Origin: an uncultured Bacilli bacterium | GTDB lineage: Bacteria; Bacillota_I; Bacilli_A; RF39; UBA660 | DNA length: 49,124 nucleotides | Assembly: GCA_947627375.1 (NCBI GenBank) | Contig: CANQVR010000001.1 | Location: 1 to 49,124 of the forward strand | Direction of reading: 5' to 3' | Shown: in pieces, positions 1 to 35,660 of the stretch | How the letters are laid out: each line of letters starts with the position of its first letter | How positions within the stretch are numbered: the stretch's first letter is position 1 | Translations under genes and position numbers: made by a program | Notes under the pieces: generated by a model | Seen by the model: only the letters and a program-made list of their open reading frames with translations | Told to the model about the DNA's origin: nothing | The model's database searches: none

Positions 1-3
1 AAC

Positions 4-79
4 TGGTGGCTCCAGCGGGAATCGAACCAGCGACACAGGGATTTTCAGTCCCTTGCTCTACCGACTGAGCTATGAAGCC
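4..79 (-). tRNA. tRNA-Phe (anticodon GAA), CCA encoded
   Basis: Reverse complement GGCTTCATAGCTCAGTCGGTAGAGCAAGGGACTGAAAATCCCT...GGTTCGATTCCC...CCACCA folds as a cloverleaf. Anticodon loop is CTGAAAA. Confidence 0.95.
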
Positions 80-88
80 AAAATATAA

Positions 89-165
89 TGGCGGTTCCTA
101 CGGGACTCGAACCCGCGATCTTCTGCGTGACAGGCAGACGTGTTAACCAGCTGCACCAAGGAACC
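89..165 (-). tRNA. tRNA-Asp (anticodon GUC), CCA encoded
   Basis: Reverse complement GGTTCCTTGGTGCAGC...TCTGC-CTGTCAC-GCAGA...GGTTCGAGTCCCGTAGGAACCGCCA. Anticodon stem pairs and the loop carries GTC. Confidence 0.95.
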
Positions 166-169
166 AAAT

Positions 170-246
170 TGGTTGCGGGAAGAGGATTTGAACCTCTGAC
201 CTCTGGGTTATGAGCCCAACGAGCTACCGGACTGCTCTATCCCGCG
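170..246 (-). tRNA. Initiator tRNA-fMet (anticodon CAU)
   Basis: Reverse complement CGCGGGATAGAGCAG...TTGGG-CTCATAA-CCCAG...CCCGCAACCA. It has the C1xA72 mismatch and GGG/CCC in the anticodon stem, which are bacterial initiator hallmarks. Confidence 0.9.
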
Positions 247-259
247 ATGTAAATTTAAA

Positions 260-352
260 TGGCGGAGGAAAAGGGATTCGAACCCCTGCGCCGATTGCTC
301 GACCTCCTGGTTTTCAAGACCAGTCCCTTCAGCCAGACTTGGGTATTCCTCC
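260..352 (-). tRNA. tRNA-Ser (anticodon UGA), long variable arm
   Basis: Reverse complement GGAGGAATACCCAAGTCTGGCTGAAGGGACTGGT-CTTGAAA-ACCAG..., 93 nt with an extra arm, GGTTCGAATCCC T-arm and CCA. Confidence 0.95.
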
Positions 353-356
353 GTTA

Positions 357-374
357 TGGTGCCTAAGGCCGGAC
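357..374. repeat. Prophage att core, left copy (orphan 3' end of tRNA-Leu)
   Basis: TGGTGCCTAAGGCCGGAC is identical to 35227..35244, the 3' end of the intact tRNA-Leu. Identity stops on both sides of the 18 bp. Confidence 0.9.
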
Positions 375-395
375 GTAAATCCCCTTGGCAAAACT

Positions 396-425
396 ACTAT
401 ATCATTATATTATATAGTTTGTCAA
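396..425 (-). promoter_or_regulatory. Outward-facing sigma-A-type promoter at the prophage edge, aimed at tRNA-Ser/fMet/Asp/Phe
   Basis: The minus strand reads TTGACA (420..425), an 18-nt spacer ending in TGa, then TATAGT (396..401). It lies in phage DNA about 20 bp inside the att core and points out of the prophage. Confidence 0.55.
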
Positions 426-475
426 CGATTTTTTTCCATTTTTTACTCTATTTTTCCGTCCATTTCACCCACTTC

Positions 476-498
476 GGAGTAATTTTGGAGTAATTTTG
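476..498 (+). repeat. Tandem GGAGTAATTTTG motif x2 (candidate integrase arm-type sites)
   Basis: GGAGTAATTTTG occurs at 476..487 and 487..498. The same 12-mer occurs at 35164..35175 near the other att end, in the same orientation. Confidence 0.5.
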
Positions 499-509
499 TT
501 AATAAAATT

Positions 510-977
510 ATGCAATGTAAATATTTTAGAAAAAGAGTAAAAAAGAAACAATACTACTATTATTGTGTTAAACAAAAAAAGATAATCTATCATAGTAATT
601 GTAATAATTGTAAGTATAAAGAATACAAGATTTATAAACCTATTAAGAAAAGAACATATAAGCAATCTAAGAAAGAAAAAACACGATATAGTATAATTTA
701 TACTAATCTAAATAAATGTGCTGAATGTGGCTCTATATATAATATAGAAAGGAACGAAGTTTTTGAGGGGGCTTATAGAGGACGATCTATTAAGTATGGC
801 ATGATTGCGCCATTTTGTCATGATTGCCATAATAGGTTTCATAATGATTATGAAATGAACCTTAGATACAAAGTACGTTTTCAACAAGAATTTTTAAAAA
901 ATCATACCAGAGATGAGTTCATAAATATTTTTAAACAAGATTATATTTATATACAAAAAGTTCACAAAAACGATTGA
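510..977 (+). CDS. Cys/His-rich zinc-binding protein (NinG/HNH-like suspected); function unknown
   Basis: 155-aa ORF on the strand opposite the late genes. It has CxxC...CxxC and CAECG...CHDCHNRFH motifs, a basic N-terminal half, and no obvious SD. Confidence 0.55.
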   Translation: MQCKYFRKRVKKKQYYYYCVKQKKIIYHSNCNNCKYKEYKIYKPIKKRTYKQSKKEKTRYSIIYTNLNKCAECGSIYNIERNEVFEGAYRGRSIKYGMIAPFCHDCHNRFHNDYEMNLRYKVRFQQEFLKNHTRDEFINIFKQDYIYIQKVHKND

Positions 978-1082
978 TTTATTTTCGTATGTATGATATT
1001 TTTAAACAAGAGATATGATCTTAATAGTTAGGTGCACATCTCCGCTATATATTTTAAATATGTAGTTAAGGAGGTGATGCCT

Positions 1083-1121
1083 ATGCCGCACTATATATTT
1101 TTAACTTTAAGGTATTTCTAA
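1083..1121 (+). CDS. 12-codon leader ORF (MPHYIFLTLRYF) with a near-perfect SD
   Basis: AAGGAGGTGA lies at 1068..1077, with 8 nt between GGAGG and the ATG at 1083. The stop TAA directly abuts the ATG of the next ORF in the same frame. Confidence 0.35.
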   Translation: MPHYIFLTLRYF

Positions 1122-1193
1122 ATGGAATATTTAATAGTTGCGGTTATTATCTTAGTAGTTATACTGCTTATGATAATAGCCGTTAAGAAATAA
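1122..1193 (+). CDS. 23-aa hydrophobic peptide MEYLIVAVIILVVILLMIIAVKK (candidate type I toxin)
   Basis: Single predicted TM helix with a KK tail. The ATG is fused to the stop of the leader ORF (TAA-ATG). A convergent promoter and terminators lie downstream. Confidence 0.4.
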   Translation: MEYLIVAVIILVVILLMIIAVKK

Positions 1194-1200
1194 TAGGGGG

Positions 1201-1247
1201 TAAAAAGACAAAAGCACCTAACTTCAAAAAATGAAGTTTAAGGTGCT
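1201..1247 (-). terminator. Intrinsic terminator, minus strand
   Basis: The minus strand reads AGCACCTTAAACTTCA-ttttt-TGAAGTTAGGTGCT (14-bp stem with a 2-nt bulge) followed by TTTGTCTTTTTA. Confidence 0.6.
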
Positions 1248-1267
1248 ATCCAAAAAAGCGGAGACAC

Positions 1268-1307
1268 ACCTAACGACGAAAATTAGGTTGTATCTCTTTT
1301 TTATTTT
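1268..1307 (+). terminator. Weak intrinsic terminator, plus strand
   Basis: ACCTAA-cgacgaaaa-TTAGGT followed by tgtatcTCTTTTTTATTTT. The stem is short. Confidence 0.35.
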
Positions 1308-1352
1308 ATGAAAGAACATAAAATAAATACATTTTTTCAAGAAATGTTTATT

Positions 1353-1380
1353 ATTATACAACATTTCCTAAAAAAGTCAA
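1353..1380 (-). promoter_or_regulatory. Near-consensus sigma-A promoter, minus strand
   Basis: The reverse complement reads TTGACT-tttttaggaaatgttg-TATAAT with a 16-nt spacer. Confidence 0.55.
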
Positions 1381-1528
1381 TATAGAATGAGAAAAAATAG
1401 TATAATTACTAACCACACAGCTACTATCTCATATATTAAATATAACACAATTTATGAAAAAGTAAATACTTTTAATGAAAAATATTGAAAATTATAGTCA
1501 ATTATTAAAAAATATGAACTTTTATAAC

Positions 1529-1567
1529 ATAAAAAAAGACTTAAGAAATAATTAAATCTCTTAAGTC
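1529..1567 (-). terminator. Intrinsic terminator of the late/lysis operon
   Basis: GACTTAAGA...TCTTAAGTC forms a 9-bp stem immediately after the endolysin stop, followed on the minus strand by TTTTTTTAT. Confidence 0.65.
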
Positions 1568-1570
1568 CTT

Positions 1571-2461
1571 TTAATTGTTAGATACTTCATAAAGAGGTCC
1601 ACAATCGCACCTAAATCTCACTCCATCAGCTTCAAGTGTTGCTACACCATTTTTTAGATATTTAGTAGGTAAATCAGTTGCTACTACATTAAATATTTTA
1701 TCACAGGTCCAATAACCTCCTACTCTTAATACCCCATTATAATTTGGATTAGATCCATCAGCATTACACGTTGCTAAAGGCCCACATGGAATATAATCAT
1801 TAGCATCACATGGAGCACCATAACAAGTAGCATAACTCCCTACTGCGCCATTTGGATATTTATCATTAGGTTTTATTACTTCATTAATTTTAAATACTCC
1901 ATTGAATTTAACCTTGGATCCTACTCTTATTATTTGATCTGCTCCACTGCTAGAAGTACCACCATTTAATTTTTGCTGCACTTTGTTTACAAAAGTATTC
2001 CAATCACAAGGATTGCCTCTTCTAATATCATAAGGGCAATCTTTACCAGTCCAATGATTATGCTGATAAAGATAAGCACTCGCATTACTTACACCATATC
2101 TTTGCAGTATTTGTGCACAAAGCTCTGCAGCATTTTCAGTAGCCTGCAGAATATTACCATCAGAATTATCACATATTTCAATATTTATAGTTTTCATGTT
2201 ACCATCACCACGACCATCGCCTGCACACCACGCTACTTCGTTTTCAGGTATACATCTAACTGCTCTTGTATCATCAATTACATAATGCCAAGAGGTATAA
2301 TTACTCTTCCAGCTACCCCTTAATAGATTAGCATGAGCTATTGCGTTAGCTCCTTTATTCCAATTTGATGTGTTGTGAACTGTTATTCCTCGAAATCCAG
2401 TTCTTGAAAGTCCTGAACGACAATTATATCCTAAAGGCGCTAGCATTTCGATTATTTCCAT
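1571..2461 (-). CDS. Endolysin: N-acetylmuramoyl-L-alanine amidase (Amidase_2/PGRP type) plus a Cys-rich C-terminal domain
   Basis: The N-terminus MEIIEMLAP...ITVHNT...HYVIDD...AWCAGDG...EICD...HNHWTGKDCP matches PlyL-type amidases as I remember them. It is the last gene of the late operon. I chose the ATG at 2461 rather than the track start at 2491. Confidence 0.85.
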   Translation of the reverse strand: MEIIEMLAPLGYNCRSGLSRTGFRGITVHNTSNWNKGANAIAHANLLRGSWKSNYTSWHYVIDDTRAVRCIPENEVAWCAGDGRGDGNMKTINIEICDNSDGNILQATENAAELCAQILQRYGVSNASAYLYQHNHWTGKDCPYDIRRGNPCDWNTFVNKVQQKLNGGTSSSGADQIIRVGSKVKFNGVFKINEVIKPNDKYPNGAVGSYATCYGAPCDANDYIPCGPLATCNADGSNPNYNGVLRVGGYWTCDKIFNVVATDLPTKYLKNGVATLEADGVRFRCDCGPLYEVSNN

Positions 2462-2462
2462 T

Positions 2463-2564
2463 TTATTCATCATCTCCCTTGCCGTCTTCAATTATTCCAT
2501 TTTTTATTCCATCTAAAAAAGCTTCCTCATTTGAAAGCTCTGCGTGTTTTTCAAAAGTAGCCAT
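2463..2564 (-). CDS. Small acidic protein (33 aa), unknown
   Basis: AGGAGGA lies 9 nt upstream of the ATG at 2564. The ORF fills the gap between holin and endolysin, and its stop is 1 nt before the endolysin ATG. Confidence 0.45.
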   Translation of the reverse strand: MATFEKHAELSNEEAFLDGIKNGIIEDGKGDDE

Positions 2565-2566
2565 GA

Positions 2567-2773
2567 TTACCATTCCTCCTTTTCATCATTATATTTTTTA
2601 GTAGAAATGCCAAGTAATACTCCTAAGAATGTATCTATTGCTGTAATAGTTCCAACTATCTCTTCACCATAAGGTAAGTGCCAAATACTTGCTAATGCAA
2701 AATATAAAGTTCCAAGCGCTGGTAAAACTATTTGTGCTATATATTTCAATTTATCATAAGTTTCATTCTTCAT
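2567..2773 (-). CDS. Holin (Dp-1/LL-H-like small holin)
   Basis: 68 aa with two hydrophobic segments (IAQIVLPALGTLYFALASIW and GTITAIDTFLGVLLGI) and a charged C-terminus. It lies directly upstream of the endolysin. The start at 2773 has better SD spacing than 2782. Confidence 0.75.
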   Translation of the reverse strand: MKNETYDKLKYIAQIVLPALGTLYFALASIWHLPYGEEIVGTITAIDTFLGVLLGISTKKYNDEKEEW

Positions 2774-3071
2774 TATTATCATCTCCTTCTTTTACATCAT
2801 TTAATATATATTTTTCACACAACTTTTTTGTATAACTATCATAGCCTTTAGCTAAATAACTATCGCACACTTCTGCTCTTTCAACTTTAGGTATTTCTCT
2901 ATTCCAAATAATGGACTTTTGTGCTAATTTAGTAGTTGATTCTAAAATCTCATTTTGATCATTAAACCATGTCCCTATCTTCCAAAAGCCACCTAAAATC
3001 ACTGTCAAAATAGTTGTGAGTAATATAAAATATTTCCAATTTTTTTCTAAATTAGACATAAATTTATCCAT
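2763..3071 (-). CDS. Membrane-anchored protein, unknown (lysis-module neighbour)
   Basis: 102-aa ORF with an N-terminal TM segment (WKYFILLTTILTVILGGFW) and an acidic tail. Confidence 0.6.
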   Translation of the reverse strand: MDKFMSNLEKNWKYFILLTTILTVILGGFWKIGTWFNDQNEILESTTKLAQKSIIWNREIPKVERAEVCDSYLAKGYDSYTKKLCEKYILNDVKEGDDNNEE

Positions 3072-3103: not shown

Positions 3104-3511
3104 TTATTTTTTTGTATATTCTGCAACAATATAAAATGTTTCTAAAATATTATTAGCATACGCCTTTTGTTCTATTCCTATTTGCGTAGAAGATATGTAT
3201 AACATTATATCTACGTCACTTGTTGTTGGATAAGGAAGCGGAAACCAAAAAGTGGTTGGCGCAGGTTTGCAAAATCCATACAACTTAATAGGAACATCAA
3301 AATCAGATATGTTATGATTAATATAATATTTATTATTACTGAATTGCGGATTCTTAAAAGTAAAAACTTTTCTATAAATATCTTTATCGTCAACCCACTT
3401 TTGTCCTGTTTTTATTTCTTCGCTTATAGAAAATTTACCCGAATTCTCATATCTAGGAATTCTTGGATTTAATATTTCTCCTGCTTTATTTTTCAATACA
3501 TTTAATGCCAT
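3104..3511 (-). CDS. Paralog C of the triplicated small-protein cassette (candidate receptor-binding/fibre-tip protein)
   Basis: The N-terminus MALNVLKNKAGEILNPRIPRYE is shared with 3539..3949 and 3974..4366. The C-terminal ~110 aa are unrelated. Confidence 0.7.
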   Translation of the reverse strand: MALNVLKNKAGEILNPRIPRYENSGKFSISEEIKTGQKWVDDKDIYRKVFTFKNPQFSNNKYYINHNISDFDVPIKLYGFCKPAPTTFWFPLPYPTTSDVDIMLYISSTQIGIEQKAYANNILETFYIVAEYTKK

Positions 3512-3538
3512 ATTATCGGCTTATATTTTTCTCTTTTT

Positions 3539-3949
3539 TTAAGAAATATGATTTTTTAATTTTATACCGTAAACGCCTGTTAGGTGTCCAGTTCCAAAGG
3601 CTGCCTTGAATATATTACTTATATTTATTGAAGTGTCAGTATCAAAATATAGCTCAATAGTAATATAAGCACTTGCTTGTTCCATATAACATAAATCTAT
3701 CATTTGAGTTGATACAATCATAGTTTGTCTTATGAAATGAAGCTCCCCTTTTTCAACTATTGTAGGAGTGTTTGACGCACTTATTTCTATAGCAATTATG
3801 TCATAATTTCTTATACTATCTTTTAAATTAATTTTTCCAGTAGTTGTTTGATTGCCACTCCATAATTCATATATTCCATGTTTTTCATATCTAGGAATTC
3901 TTGGATTTAATATATTTCCTAACTTGTCTTTCAATACATTTAATGCCAT
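3539..3949 (-). CDS. Paralog B of the triplicated small-protein cassette
   Basis: The N-terminus is MALNVLKDKLGNILNPRIPRYEK. It shares 21-nt and 29-nt identical DNA blocks with paralog C at the 5' end. Confidence 0.7.
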   Translation of the reverse strand: MALNVLKDKLGNILNPRIPRYEKHGIYELWSGNQTTTGKINLKDSIRNYDIIAIEISASNTPTIVEKGELHFIRQTMIVSTQMIDLCYMEQASAYITIELYFDTDTSINISNIFKAAFGTGHLTGVYGIKLKNHIS

Positions 3950-3973
3950 AATTATTCATTATCGGCTATATGC

Positions 3974-4366
3974 TTATGGTATAGGTACTAATTTAACTAT
4001 AATGCATCTTGCATGTTCTCCACCTGAATTTGATAAAGTCCTAGCAAATGTATAACTTATATTTTTTTTACATTTCCAAACACCTCTTGCAATAAGAGGT
4101 CTACTTGCTGTATTACCACCCGCTTGTATATTGGTGAAAGAGAATATTTCCTCAGCATCTCCTACAGTATTTACTATATTAATTCTATTATCTCCTCCAT
4201 TGTTTCCCCAAGTAGCGCAATCACACATTATTTCTGCATAACAATTGAATTTTGGTGTGAAAGTGATACTTTCATTAGTAGACGTTATATATTCAATCGG
4301 CTTTTCATACCTTGGGATATGTGGGTTTAAAATATTTCCTAACTTGTCTTTTAGTACGTTACTCAT
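3974..4366 (-). CDS. Paralog A of the triplicated small-protein cassette
   Basis: The N-terminus is MSNVLKDKLGNILNPHIPRYEK. The SD GTGAGGT lies 7 nt upstream of the ATG at 4366; the track start at 4372 is too close to the SD. Confidence 0.7.
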   Translation of the reverse strand: MSNVLKDKLGNILNPHIPRYEKPIEYITSTNESITFTPKFNCYAEIMCDCATWGNNGGDNRINIVNTVGDAEEIFSFTNIQAGGNTASRPLIARGVWKCKKNISYTFARTLSNSGGEHARCIIVKLVPIP

Positions 4367-4448
4367 AAACATACCTCACTTTTAAAAGAAGAGAAAAACT
4401 ATTTTTAAGCCTTTCCCTCCTTTCTTGAGGAGTTAGTCGATAATACGA

Positions 4449-26880: not shown

Positions 26881-27087
26881 CTAAAGTTTTTTGATGGCTT
26901 TTATTTCAATATCATATATTTTTTTCTTTCTGCCATCTAAATTTTTATGTTCAGTATATGGAAAATCAAAATCGCAATAACAGTAATTATGATCAAATAA
27001 CAAATCACATATTCCATTTATTTCATCTTTTATATGTTGTTTTTTTATTTTAATTTTTTCTATTTCTTCTTTTGTCAAATCTTCCAT
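26881..27087 (-). CDS. Hypothetical protein
   Basis: 68-aa ORF. Confidence 0.5.
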   Translation of the reverse strand: MEDLTKEEIEKIKIKKQHIKDEINGICDLLFDHNYCYCDFDFPYTEHKNLDGRKKKIYDIEIKAIKKL

Positions 27088-32804: not shown

Positions 32805-33461
32805 TTGGAAGAAGAACTAAAAAAGATGATAATAGAAAAATATGGATCAGTTATGCAATTTTCTAAAAAAATTGATGTTCCATACACAACAATTGACACT
32901 ATTTTAAAACGTGGAATAGATAATTCTAATGTGACTAACGTCATTAAAATATGCAAAGAATTAAAACTTTCAGTAGAAGAAATGGTAGATAATAAAAAAC
33001 TAATTTCACAATTAAATTTTGACAATGCCGAAATAATAGATATTGATACTAACATGATAAAAATACCTGTTTATGGTACTATAAAAGCTGGTATACCGAT
33101 AGAAAGTCAAACGGATATAACTGAATATGTAGAGATACCAAAAGACTGGACAAAGGGTGGCAAATCGTTTTATGGAATAAAAATTAGTGGTGATAGTATG
33201 TATCCTAAATATAATGAGGGTGATATCGTTATATTTGAATATATACAAGATTTTGAAACGGCAAATGGAAAAGATTGTGCTATTATGATAAATGGTAGTG
33301 AATCAACATTTAAAAAAGTTTTATTAAATGATCAAGGAATTGTACTACAACCTTACAATATGGGAGTATACGATGTTATGATGTATAGCAATCAACAAAT
33401 TGAGGACTTACCTATTAAAGTAGTTGGTGTTGCTAAAGAAAAAAGAGTTAAATTAAATTAA
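32805..33461 (+). CDS. CI/LexA-like repressor (XRE HTH plus S24 peptidase domain)
   Basis: The TTG start has GGAGGT 7 nt upstream. The N-terminal HTH is followed by the C-terminal motif GDSMYPKY...K(K)V, the self-cleavage Ser-Lys dyad pattern. Confidence 0.85.
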   Translation: MEEELKKMIIEKYGSVMQFSKKIDVPYTTIDTILKRGIDNSNVTNVIKICKELKLSVEEMVDNKKLISQLNFDNAEIIDIDTNMIKIPVYGTIKAGIPIESQTDITEYVEIPKDWTKGGKSFYGIKISGDSMYPKYNEGDIVIFEYIQDFETANGKDCAIMINGSESTFKKVLLNDQGIVLQPYNMGVYDVMMYSNQQIEDLPIKVVGVAKEKRVKLN

Positions 33462-33884: not shown

Positions 33885-33983
33885 CAGTACACAAAATCAA
33901 ATAGTCCAGCAAGACAATTCTTTTTTGTGCAATTTTATTATATCAAAAATTAGCCAATTTAACAATAATTGGAGGTAAAAAAA

Positions 33984-35153
33984 ATGAATTTAAAAGTATA
34001 TGAAAAAACAAGATATCAAAATATCTATAGACATAAAAAAAATGGAAATTATGTTATACAAATTAGTAATCCTAAAACAAGCATATCAAGAATGCCGAAT
34101 GGTAATAAAATTTGGAACAAAGATGATGCAATAAAAATTAGAGATAACAAAGAAAGCAAGCTCTTAAAACAGTCACAACTTTCTTCTAAGGTACTTTTTG
34201 GTACTGCATGGGACAAATATATCGAATGGTGTAAAAACGACCAAAATCAGAAATATAGTACCTATAATAAAAAAGAAAAAATATATAACAAACATTTAAG
34301 AATCTTGAAAAACAAAATAGTTTCTAAAATAACTGAAGATTATATGAAAAGATTTATAAGTGGATTAAGCACTACTGATAAGCAAAAAAATGAAGTGTTA
34401 CAAAAAGCATTGTTACCATTTTTTAATTGGTGTATGATTGAAGAAAAGATTATTTTAATCAATCCAGTTATACATATAAAAAAAATAAGAGTACAAAAAC
34501 CTAAAATAGATTACTGGACAATTGATGAAGTTACACAATTTTTTACATTCATTAATGAATATATTAATTCCGATATCGATATAAAACAAAAAGAAGTGGC
34601 ATATAGAGTTAAAATGTACTCTTCTATTACATTTGCGTTAGGAGATAGAATCGGAGAAACTAGAGCACTGTTTTTTGATTCTTTCGATGATATTAAAGAA
34701 ATAACTAATATAAATCATTCTATAGACTATAATCCTAACAATAAAATATTTATAACATCAACTAAAACTGTCGGATCTGAAAGAATTGTAGATACAAGTA
34801 AAAAGATTTTGCAAGATATAAAAGACTATAAAAATTTTTTAATACAAGATTTAGGCTATCCAGTTAAAAACGACTCACTAATATTTTTTAATTATTCTAC
34901 TAATAAACCTTTTTCAGATACCCTATTACGAAATAATTTTTATAAATTTTGTAAACTAGCAAAAGTACCAAAAATAACACCGTACGCTTTAAGACATACT
35001 CACGTTGCTACTTTAATGGCAGAAGGAAAGCCTTTATATCAAATAAGTCCAAGAATTGGACATACAAGATATGATACAACTGTAACTAAATACGGACATT
35101 TAGAAAGAACGATTAGAAAGGAGATAGCAAATACTACCGATAAGTACTTTTAA
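33984..35153 (+). CDS. int: Tyrosine integrase
   Basis: It has R (GDRIGETRAL), HxxR (ALRHTHVAT) and H...Y (IGHTRYDTTVTKYGH). GGAGGT lies 8 nt upstream of the ATG at 33984. It abuts att and tRNA-Leu. Confidence 0.9.
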   Translation: MNLKVYEKTRYQNIYRHKKNGNYVIQISNPKTSISRMPNGNKIWNKDDAIKIRDNKESKLLKQSQLSSKVLFGTAWDKYIEWCKNDQNQKYSTYNKKEKIYNKHLRILKNKIVSKITEDYMKRFISGLSTTDKQKNEVLQKALLPFFNWCMIEEKIILINPVIHIKKIRVQKPKIDYWTIDEVTQFFTFINEYINSDIDIKQKEVAYRVKMYSSITFALGDRIGETRALFFDSFDDIKEITNINHSIDYNPNNKIFITSTKTVGSERIVDTSKKILQDIKDYKNFLIQDLGYPVKNDSLIFFNYSTNKPFSDTLLRNNFYKFCKLAKVPKITPYALRHTHVATLMAEGKPLYQISPRIGHTRYDTTVTKYGHLERTIRKEIANTTDKYF

Positions 35154-35226: not shown

Positions 35227-35244
35227 TGGTGCCTAAGGCCGGAC
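35227..35244. repeat. Prophage att core, right copy (within the intact tRNA-Leu)
   Basis: Identical to 357..374. Confidence 0.9.
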
Positions 35245-35584: not shown

Positions 35585-35660
35585 TGGTGCCGAAAGTAGG
35601 ACTTGAACCCACAACCTACTGATTACAAATCAGTTGCTCTACCAGTTGAGCTATTTCGGC
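35585..35660 (-). tRNA. tRNA-Thr (anticodon UGU)
   Basis: Reverse complement GCCGAAATAGCTCAACTGGTAGAGCAACTGA-TTTGTAA-TCAGT...GGTTCAAGTCCTACTTTCGGCACCA. Confidence 0.95.

Follow-up and report, generated by a model that had tools for sequence, protein, structure and literature searches.

The window analysed here, a stretch of 49,124 nucleotides (nt) from contig CANQVR010000001.1 of an uncultured Bacilli bacterium (source assembly of 1.24 Mb, 85% complete), opens with four minus-strand transfer RNA (tRNA) genes at 4-352 and carries an 18-base-pair (bp) direct repeat, TGGTGCCTAAGGCCGGAC, at 357-374 and again at 35227-35244. Between the two copies lie a tyrosine integrase (33969-35153), an S24/HTH repressor (32805-33461), a Dp-1 holin (2567-2782) and an Amidase_2 endolysin (1571-2491), and since the repeat encloses all four, the short module that is the subject of this study sits 0.6-1.0 kilobases (kb) inside one end of a prophage of ~35 kb. 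It is flanked by a cysteine-rich (Cys-rich) open reading frame (ORF) at 510-977 and by the end of the lysis genes, and combines a gene for a small hydrophobic peptide, an upstream ORF, a predicted mRNA whose two ends can pair, and a convergent promoter predicted to yield an ORF-less antisense RNA. A first-pass annotation made from the sequence alone had described a type I toxin-antitoxin-like arrangement here, and every feature that it listed (12-codon ORF, 23-codon ORF, promoter and terminators) was recovered at the same coordinates (Table 1). DNA runs of rabbit gut metagenomes contain the stretch, some of them possibly made from the source sample, and no RNA sequencing run containing it was found among the listed runs.

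Table 1. Parts of the module, with positions in the window and the observation on which each part rests
Feature	Position	Strand	Observation
Whole module	972..1381	.	homology block with closest relative L053 (genome G211)
Peptide-mRNA promoter-like site TTGATT-17-TATTTT	974..1002	+	8/12; predicted start ~1009-1010
Predicted peptide mRNA, ~295 nt	1009..1304	+	fold; aligns with 41 relatives
5' arm of the long-distance interaction	1007..1047	+	includes GAGATATGATCT, TTAGGTG and CTCCGCT
Anti-Shine-Dalgarno CACATCTCC	1035..1043	+	paired with the Shine-Dalgarno in the minimum-energy fold
Strong Shine-Dalgarno AAGGAGGTGA	1068..1077	+	direct sequence reading
Shine-Dalgarno-led upstream ORF, 12 codons, MPHYIFLTLRYF	1083..1121	+	TAA stop abuts the next ATG
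Candidate toxin peptide gene, 23 amino acids, MEYLIVAVIILVVILLMIIAVKK	1122..1193	+	same frame as the leader ORF
Antisense intrinsic terminator	1202..1247	-	hairpin 1247..1213, then U-tract 1212..1202 (plus-strand A-run)
3' arm and peptide-mRNA terminator	1256..1302	+	hairpin 1261-1296, T-run 1297-1302 (six T)
5' stem-loop of the predicted antisense RNA	1300..1327	-	fold; weak support
Predicted ORF-less antisense RNA, ~150 nt	1197..1346	-	promoter and fold; family geometry
Antisense promoter TTGACT-16-TATAAT	1353..1380	-	11/12

The module turned out to be one of 45 distinct homologous modules, counted after eight records that had been seen twice were dropped. Homologues of the Cys-rich protein occur in 29 of 400 genomes of the same family and on one IMG/VR contig, and beside three of them lay small hydrophobic ORFs with an MEY start and alignable flanks. 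A first motif pattern built from these three loci and the window gave 10 sites in 9 of 401 family genomes (none for the reversed-pattern control), and a slightly relaxed version was then run more widely. Species-representative genomes returned 71 loci, 43 of which were family members, IMG/VR returned four with one member, and among 80 loci fetched from metagenome contigs ~11 belonged to the family; the remaining matches were two other recurring sequences and scattered chance matches. Nearly all members carry the host label of uncultured Bacilli, Tenericutes, Mollicutes, Erysipelotrichaceae or Firmicutes from animal and human guts, and the few under other labels may be explained by binning or transfer. 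Mean column identity was 46% over the family alignment and 80% in the pairwise alignment of the window with its closest relative, where similarity starts near the plus-strand -35 box and stops just past the minus-strand -35 box.

Other searches found little of this. BLAST of the module against its own genome returned only itself, and against 60 relatives only short AT-rich matches (26-67 nt, best E 2.9e-6). The pattern search likewise gave no second copy in the 85% complete assembly, so the prophage holds the single copy. Deposited phages showed no similarity match to the stretch. In IMG/VR, an exact 20-mer and the back-translated first 10 residues of the peptide each gave 0 matches, the endolysin used as an anchor gave no locus, and the Cys-rich protein, a zinc-finger gene in the first-pass annotation, led to one locus (L017) without the module.

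All 45 modules encode a peptide of 16-29 amino acids (aa) that begins with MEY and continues with hydrophobic residues (43 distinct coding sequences, 40 distinct peptides). In the window, a hydrophobic stretch after MEY is closed by a KK tail; across the family the tails are polar or charged (KK, NKK, DKITNPPKSH, NSRH and others). Over codons 6-16, which lie outside the search pattern, entropy was 1.58, 0.68 and 1.63 for the three codon positions, position 2 being the conserved one. Amino-acid differences in codons 6-13 were hydrophobic-to-hydrophobic in 4281 cases versus 82 others, which indicates that the peptide is under selection for a hydrophobic helix. The ORF of a single sequence means little here: nine hydrophobic ORFs of 17-40 aa occur in the six frames of the window, the one at 1448..1377 at a distance of just 200 nt, and the case therefore rests on conservation. 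The first-pass annotation could name no family that the peptide resembles, and this held for eight representative peptides searched against Pfam and NCBIfam at E up to 10, which gave noise and no toxin family; the best E-value was 0.11, to unrelated membrane families, and such profile searches are low-powered at 22-29 aa. The natural 36-aa fused form from member L110, used as a query of the ESM Atlas, scored 0.77 at best, below lead level.

The 5'/3' complementarity pointed out in the first-pass annotation was borne out and is larger than described. The arms 1007-1047 and 1256-1299 pair in three helices of together 30 bp (-39.5 kcal/mol), compared with a mean of -11.8 kcal/mol (standard deviation 3.0, best -28.7) for 1000 shuffles of the 5' arm. 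An equivalent duplex of 26-41 bp and -28 to -51 kcal/mol was present in 42 of 42 aligned members, where the first ~50 nt pair with the last ~60 nt, and 5' arms paired better with their cognate partner (mean -24.4 kcal/mol) than with non-cognate ones (-18.9 kcal/mol). A MAFFT alignment built without regard to structure gave the end-to-end helices as the RNAalifold consensus, with pair types such as UA 18, CG 18 and UG 4 at one pair and UA 14, AU 10, CG 10 and UG 6 at another. For a 35-pair structure, 88.4% of cells were paired as opposed to 80.4% in shuffles, and 21 of the 35 pairs had changed on both sides as opposed to 12.3; none of 500 shuffles reached the observed value of either measure, and sliding the partner by 1-3 columns left 32-49% paired. 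Covariation, which the first-pass annotation had suggested looking for in related prophages, is thus found in the long-range pairing. By eye, the innermost helix also covaries between subfamilies (CTCCGC:GCGGAG, CTCCAC:GTGGAG, CTCAGTCC:GGACTGAG and CTCTGTTC:GGACAGAG); it is the worst-aligned of the helices, with 63.7% of cells paired. Cells that deviate from Watson-Crick pairing were G·U in 90 cases and A·C in 28, and because G·U outnumbers A·C, pairing appears to be selected in the plus-strand RNA and not as an inverted repeat of the DNA.

The predicted fold is also unusually stable for such AT-rich DNA. The plus-strand RNA of 1010-1312 folds at -98.9 kcal/mol (z = -9.7), and 1001-1300 on the plus strand ranks third in stability in a comparison that took in 978 windows of 300 nt from the two strands of the 49 kb, with only the tRNA cluster being more stable; G+C content is 31% in the module versus 53% in the tRNA cluster.

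On the mRNA side, a plus-strand promoter of at least 10/12 was found in 30 of 45 members versus 4 of 45 on the opposite strand, with an exact TATAAT in 31 of 45. In most cases 20-27 nt separate the end of its -10 box from the AGGTG motif downstream, a near-fixed distance that places the transcription start at a conserved (A)GAGATA. After the start, the order of elements is GTTAGGTG, a CCTC-type anti-Shine-Dalgarno (anti-SD), GGAGGTG and then a start codon. The GGAGGTG core, which the search pattern required, is invariant, and a start codon follows it after 5-9 nt in 45 of 45 members (ATG in 44, CTG in L056). The anti-SD/SD hairpin is common to the modules, and in silico the probability of the SD being unpaired was 0.02 in the window and 0.22 on average in the family. 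A poorly translatable transcript, a generic trait of type I systems, is therefore what the folds predict, with the SD mostly paired and the 5'/3' duplex present throughout.

The strong SD belongs to the upstream ORF, and here the first-pass annotation was right in part: an SD-led upstream ORF is found family-wide, and the abutment of its stop with the peptide start is peculiar to the window's copy, in which the upstream ORF is in frame. In 38 of 45 members the upstream ORF instead runs out of frame for 32-59 codons and spans the whole peptide ORF, a stronger likeness to hok/mok than had been noted. In five members it ends 13 nt into the peptide ORF, and in L110 it is fused in frame with the peptide. 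Only the initiation site is conserved, not frame, length or peptide sequence of this ORF. Its third position is the most conserved one, and it coincides with the T at codon position 2 of the peptide, which leaves the upstream frame open for free; I therefore read the upstream ORF as regulatory and not as a product. In many members the MEY start is also preceded, at 6-9 nt, by its own weak SD (AAGGA, AAAGGT), often inside the first codons of the upstream ORF, and both coupling to and competition with peptide translation are possible.

On the antisense side, both terminators of the first-pass annotation were confirmed by RNAfold, and a simple scan listed neither. In the family, a hairpin (R)CACCTAA…TTAGGTGY directly follows the stop codon and is preceded by an A-run (at least 7/10) in 39 of 42 relatives, with a T-run behind it in 0 of 42, which identifies it as a terminator of the minus strand only. 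The next hairpin is followed by a plus-strand T-run in 35 of 42. These counts were made by alignment column, taking whichever hairpin came first past the stop having given noisy results. Terminators crossed in this way make sense only for two convergent transcripts that overlap by ~80-110 nt. Past the plus-strand terminator, a minus-strand promoter of at least 10/12 was present in 25 of 41 relatives versus 13 of 41 on the plus strand (mean score 10.0 observed versus 8.7 shuffled, TATAAT exact in 28 of 41), in support of the convergent promoter seen in the window; its two hexamers are identical in the window and in L053, whereas the spacer differs. The predicted minus-strand RNA (1346..1195) folds at -43.2 kcal/mol (z = -6.8) and would overlap the 3' untranslated region (UTR) of the mRNA by ~105 nt without overlapping the peptide ORF. 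The minus strand folds better on average, and an equivalent of the 5' stem-loop reached z < -2 in 16 of 41 relatives, weak support for its conservation. Rfam, searched at E up to 1 with positions 1-3000 of the window and 12 family loci, returned only tRNAs and sub-threshold noise.

Three members (L052, L107 and L129) carry an extra, solitary 3' element of another subfamily (GGACTGAGAAACACCTAGC...GTGTCTCTTTTTT) ~20-70 nt past the module terminator, which may be left over from a second module or represent an antisense part that was exchanged.

The first-pass annotation had treated the module as a prophage feature, and this part of its description fell away, as most copies lie between housekeeping genes. 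The scan of genomic context covered 85 neighbouring ORFs at 34 loci. Housekeeping neighbours were found at no fewer than 12 loci (at least ruvA, ffh, miaA/mutL and infB/rbfA/uvrC, with others such as a gyrA/parC-type gene with rplU, typA, glmS, alr and Mn-catalase/cotJB); the closest relative of the window's module, for example, adjoins ffh and is not in a prophage. Phage-lysin-type domains were seen next to five copies (Peptidase_M23 at L050, L051, L052 and L058, Peptidase_M15 with PG_binding at L054), a serine recombinase next to L082 and a type IV coupling protein next to L119. Nine of 44 loci have a tRNA at a distance of no more than 2 kb, and the module is present twice in four assemblies. 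With neighbours this varied, both orientations represented and most copies between housekeeping genes, the module is an independent unit that also rides on mobile DNA and is not specific to prophages.

One tRNA-Arg-adjacent site holds, in different genomes (L061, L063, L067 and L102), modules of two subfamilies with the peptides MEYLILLLLILIVLERLMNFKD and MEYLMAVVLILSLILFIIVVLAIILK; at L087 the 3' half of the first type stands behind a full copy of the second. This pattern looks like turnover or replacement of modules.

The first-pass annotation had made the fate of its proposal depend on whether the peptide ORF and the convergent promoter/terminator geometry are kept in relatives, and they are, with weaker support for the convergent promoter than for the rest. 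The peptide, the closed fold of the mRNA, the two terminators and the limits of the module at its promoters are conserved in the alignment, and there can be very little doubt that this is a genuine conserved module of a peptide and a structured mRNA.

Among known systems, published work describes SD sequestration and 5'/3' long-distance interactions as hallmarks of type I toxin mRNAs (PMC6733600), and give typical sizes of 150-400 nt for the mRNA and 20-60 aa for the toxin (PMC8594479); the window's module, with a small hydrophobic membrane-type protein of 23 aa and a short mRNA of ~295 nt (predicted), falls within this general description. The closest geometry is that of txpA/RatA and bsrG/SR4 (also bsrE/SR5 and yonT/SR6) of B. 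subtilis, whose peptide mRNA and ORF-less antisense RNA run towards each other and share their 3' ends (an overlap of ~75 nt in txpA/RatA and ~120 nt in bsrG/SR4, compared with a predicted ~105 nt here); these pairs likewise lie on prophage or prophage-like DNA and have the SD in a stem (PMC4147584, PMC8594479). In RatA and SR4, pairing with the mRNA leads to cleavage by RNase III (PMC4147584). Pfam, NCBIfam and Rfam showed no sequence relation between these pairs and the module, whose peptides of 16-29 aa are much smaller than TxpA (59 aa; PMC4147584) and YonT (58 aa). The B. subtilis antisense RNAs also overlap the toxin ORF according to the T1TAdb text, whereas here the antisense terminator lies past the stop codon, and the available portions of PMC4147584 and PMC8594479 mention neither an extensive 5'/3' closure nor an SD-led overlapping upstream ORF for them.

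These last two traits recall other systems. In hok/mok/Sok of plasmid R1, mok overlaps the toxin ORF and governs its translation, as the overlapping ORF of 38 of 45 members here might, and cleavage at the 3' end of the full-length hok mRNA is required before this mRNA refolds and Sok is able to bind (PMC4147584). In the module, what looks like coupling could equally be competition, the two starts often being ~16 nt apart. Sok binds the 5' region over mok, in contrast to the predicted antisense RNA of the module, which is complementary to the 3' UTR only; it ends at 1197-1202, past the peptide stop, and so lacks the antisense to the 5' leader and mok start by which membership in hok/sok is recognised. 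The hok/sok family is, moreover, Gram-negative and shows no sequence similarity to the module. In aapA/IsoA of Helicobacter pylori the transcript is locked by a 5'/3' interaction with successive anti-SD elements, and the toxin is small as well (AapA1, 30 aa); IsoA covers both the 5' part and the SD, and its target is a 3'-truncated mRNA (PMC6733600), while in the module the 3' strand of the long-distance interaction would be the antisense target. This system is from Epsilonproteobacteria and has no sequence relation to the module.

Fst and SprA1 share with the module peptide a design of short polar start, hydrophobic helix and charged tail. Fst/RNAII (par of pAD1) and SprA1/SprA1as also come from the Gram-positive host group, with convergent RNAs and an antisense RNA that leaves the ORF uncovered; they differ in the site of interaction between the two RNAs, which is the translation-initiation region on the 5' side, away from the overlap (PMC8594479). 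The eight peptides gave no Pfam or NCBIfam match to them, and Rfam gave no RNAII-type match. By analogy, then, the geometry is that of the Gram-positive 3'-overlap families, and the lock with an overlapping upstream ORF is that of hok/mok, the lock also being that of aapA. A literature search by keyword, not by sequence, found no description of the module family, so that calling it not described is provisional; Rfam holds 13 type I antitoxin families (PMC8594479), and the supplementary tables of predicted novel toxin ORFs in PMC2887945, as well as the T1TAdb family list, may bear on its novelty.

From this architecture I infer that the module probably works as a toxin-antitoxin pair of a new type I-like family. 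If both RNAs are made, the mRNA would be closed and poorly translatable, with the upstream anti-SD paired to the strong SD and, once transcription has ended, the first ~40 nt paired with the last ~45 nt in place of the terminator hairpin. Ribosomes that load at the strong SD would start the upstream ORF, which runs into or over the peptide start and would either couple to peptide translation or compete with it. A convergent ORF-less RNA of ~150 nt, made from a strong promoter and ending right past the peptide stop codon, would be fully complementary to the 3' UTR of the mRNA, the same segment that the 5' UTR binds, and the two would compete for it. The antisense RNA would most likely silence the mRNA through a duplex cut by RNase III, as in txpA/RatA and bsrG/SR4, and the peptide, when made, would damage the membrane. 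An antisense-driven SD switch of the kind by which SR4 acts on bsrG was considered and is not claimed.

A more specific version can be offered as a tentative suggestion only, in which the antisense RNA is a perfect-match mimic of the 5' UTR and the module a three-state device for toxins of as few as 16-17 aa, one that would have spread, as a unit in its own right, among small-genome gut Bacilli and their phages. Its mRNA would be closed, stable and silent while 5' and 3' ends are paired, would be cleaved when bound by the antisense RNA, and, when open, would allow the SD-led upstream ORF to be translated so that it feeds or gates the peptide start.

Several points weigh against the toxin-antitoxin reading or limit its support. 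The search pattern demanded AGGTG, GGAGGTG and ATGGARTAY, making these motifs invariant by construction, and will have missed more divergent members. The long-range structure that was tested derives from the same sequences, and their relatedness inflates the shuffle tests. Support for the minus-strand promoter is moderate, the best site lying anywhere from 6 to 136 nt from the terminator, and since its position varies some of the picks are probably decoys. Some peptides have only 16-17 aa, very short for a membrane-spanning toxin. In the window, a weak toxin-side promoter (8/12) stands against a strong antisense promoter (11/12), so that this copy could be poorly expressed. Finally, blocking the 3' UTR in silico shifted the accessibility of the SD only from 0.22 to 0.14, the small effect for which the SD switch was set aside, and left the accessibility of the peptide's own start region unchanged.

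The most serious alternative, although an unlikely one, is a gene for a small membrane protein with a cis-antisense regulator, the peptide being regulatory or accessory and not a toxin. All of the conservation evidence would fit this equally well, many copies sit between housekeeping genes, and several peptides have only ~11-14 hydrophobic residues. What speaks for a toxin instead is the company that the peptide keeps: such elaborate silencing, by a sequestered SD, a lock between 5' and 3' ends, an upstream ORF that overlaps and an antisense RNA that converges, is described for toxin mRNAs (PMC6733600, PMC4147584), and the unrelated contexts, the presence on phage and conjugative DNA and the duplicate copies suit a selfish module.

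It is far less probable that the relevant product comes from the longer ORF behind the strong SD, which has 32-59 aa in most members, and that the MEY frame is a by-product of T-rich third positions. In favour of this are the ideal spacing of that ORF from a strong SD in all 45 members and a frame that is open across the peptide region in 38 of 45. In that frame, however, the third codon position is the most conserved (entropy 0.68 versus ~1.6), the reverse of a coding signature, and NNT codons are never stops, so that the frame stays open for free; it also shifts relative to the conserved nucleotides (offsets 1, 2 and 0), and the ORF, whose length varies between 12 and 59 aa, continues across the terminator hairpin.

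Slightly less credible still is a miniature mobile DNA element (MITE-like) in which the 5'/3' complementarity represents terminal inverted repeats and the ORFs are incidental. A unit of ~300-400 bp with imperfect inverted ends of ~40 bp, many contexts, nearby tRNAs in a fifth or so of the loci (9/44) and sometimes two copies per genome would be expected of one. The excess of G·U over A·C among the repeat mismatches (90 versus 28) argues for selection on RNA pairing, though, the peptide frame has a 3-base periodicity, conservation reaches past the repeats to both promoters, and the copies are few and diverged (46% mean column identity). A chance ORF among the ordinary terminators of neighbouring genes, for which one could cite the nine small hydrophobic ORFs of the window and promoter-like sites that are not enriched in 500-2500 (12 found versus 13.2 expected from shuffled sequence), is already refuted by 45 conserved homologues with covariation and by module parts that are kept whatever the neighbours.

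With the toxin-antitoxin reading as the preferred one, type I-like systems would gain a family with 45 or more members in uncultured gut bacteria whose genomes are near 1 Mb, and in which gene callers miss these peptides because they are under 30 aa; according to one paper (PMC12390103), type I systems are known from only three phyla. The family brings together parts so far described from different families (a lock of the hok/aapA type, an overlapping ORF like mok and a predicted 3' antisense RNA of the Bacillus type), and its alignment is a ready-made set of natural compensatory mutations for an mRNA lock of ~30 bp. On the prophage, the module may act in prophage retention or phage exclusion.

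Some matches and members stood apart from the family proper. The same pattern recurrently matched another conserved sequence in rumen metagenome-assembled genomes (MAGs) labelled 'Clostridiales' or 'Clostridia' (L071, L072, L083, L086, L089, L090, L096, L103, L108 and L109) and in ~14 metagenome loci (e.g., L137 and L139); its frame begins with MEYIILEGLTFISSHMAMTRGHT, and the variability of its end, at 34-196 aa, points to an element that is non-coding or in decay. A third recurrent match was a 46-aa ORF starting with MEYLVLAAGEEAARGK, found at L079, in a MAG with the label Thermus, and in metagenome contigs that match it. Three loci are possibly decayed members: L092 with a peptide truncated to 12 aa, L069 without the usual 3' hairpins and terminator, and L082 with a 16-aa peptide that ends early.

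Elsewhere in the window, the right-hand copy of the 18-bp repeat (35227-35244) resembles the 3' end of a minus-strand tRNA beside the integrase, and a third copy, 74% identical, lies 358 nt beyond it at 35585-35607. This third copy suggests that a tRNA cluster is also present there; the tRNA finder was run on the window up to 3000. The Cys-rich ORF at 510-977 on the plus strand encodes 155 aa with CxxC and CHxCH motifs, matched no Pfam family above threshold and is usually located at an element end. The non-coding stretch upstream of it (440-500; '...ttttactc...agagtaatttt(a/g)gagtaatttt') is also kept in the IMG/VR contig. Another hydrophobic ORF with an MEY start (26 aa, MEYVICYLIIITVIAILIFHILNIKI, 27017..26937 on the minus strand) lies inside the early operon; the motifs that flank the module are all missing there, and the ORF is probably unrelated to it. 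Three paralogous ORFs stand in tandem just upstream of the lysis genes (3104-4372, minus strand; 132-136 aa); they share a conserved N-terminus (MALNVLK.K.G.ILNP.IPRYE) and have differing bodies, and may be alternative tail-tip or receptor-binding cassettes.

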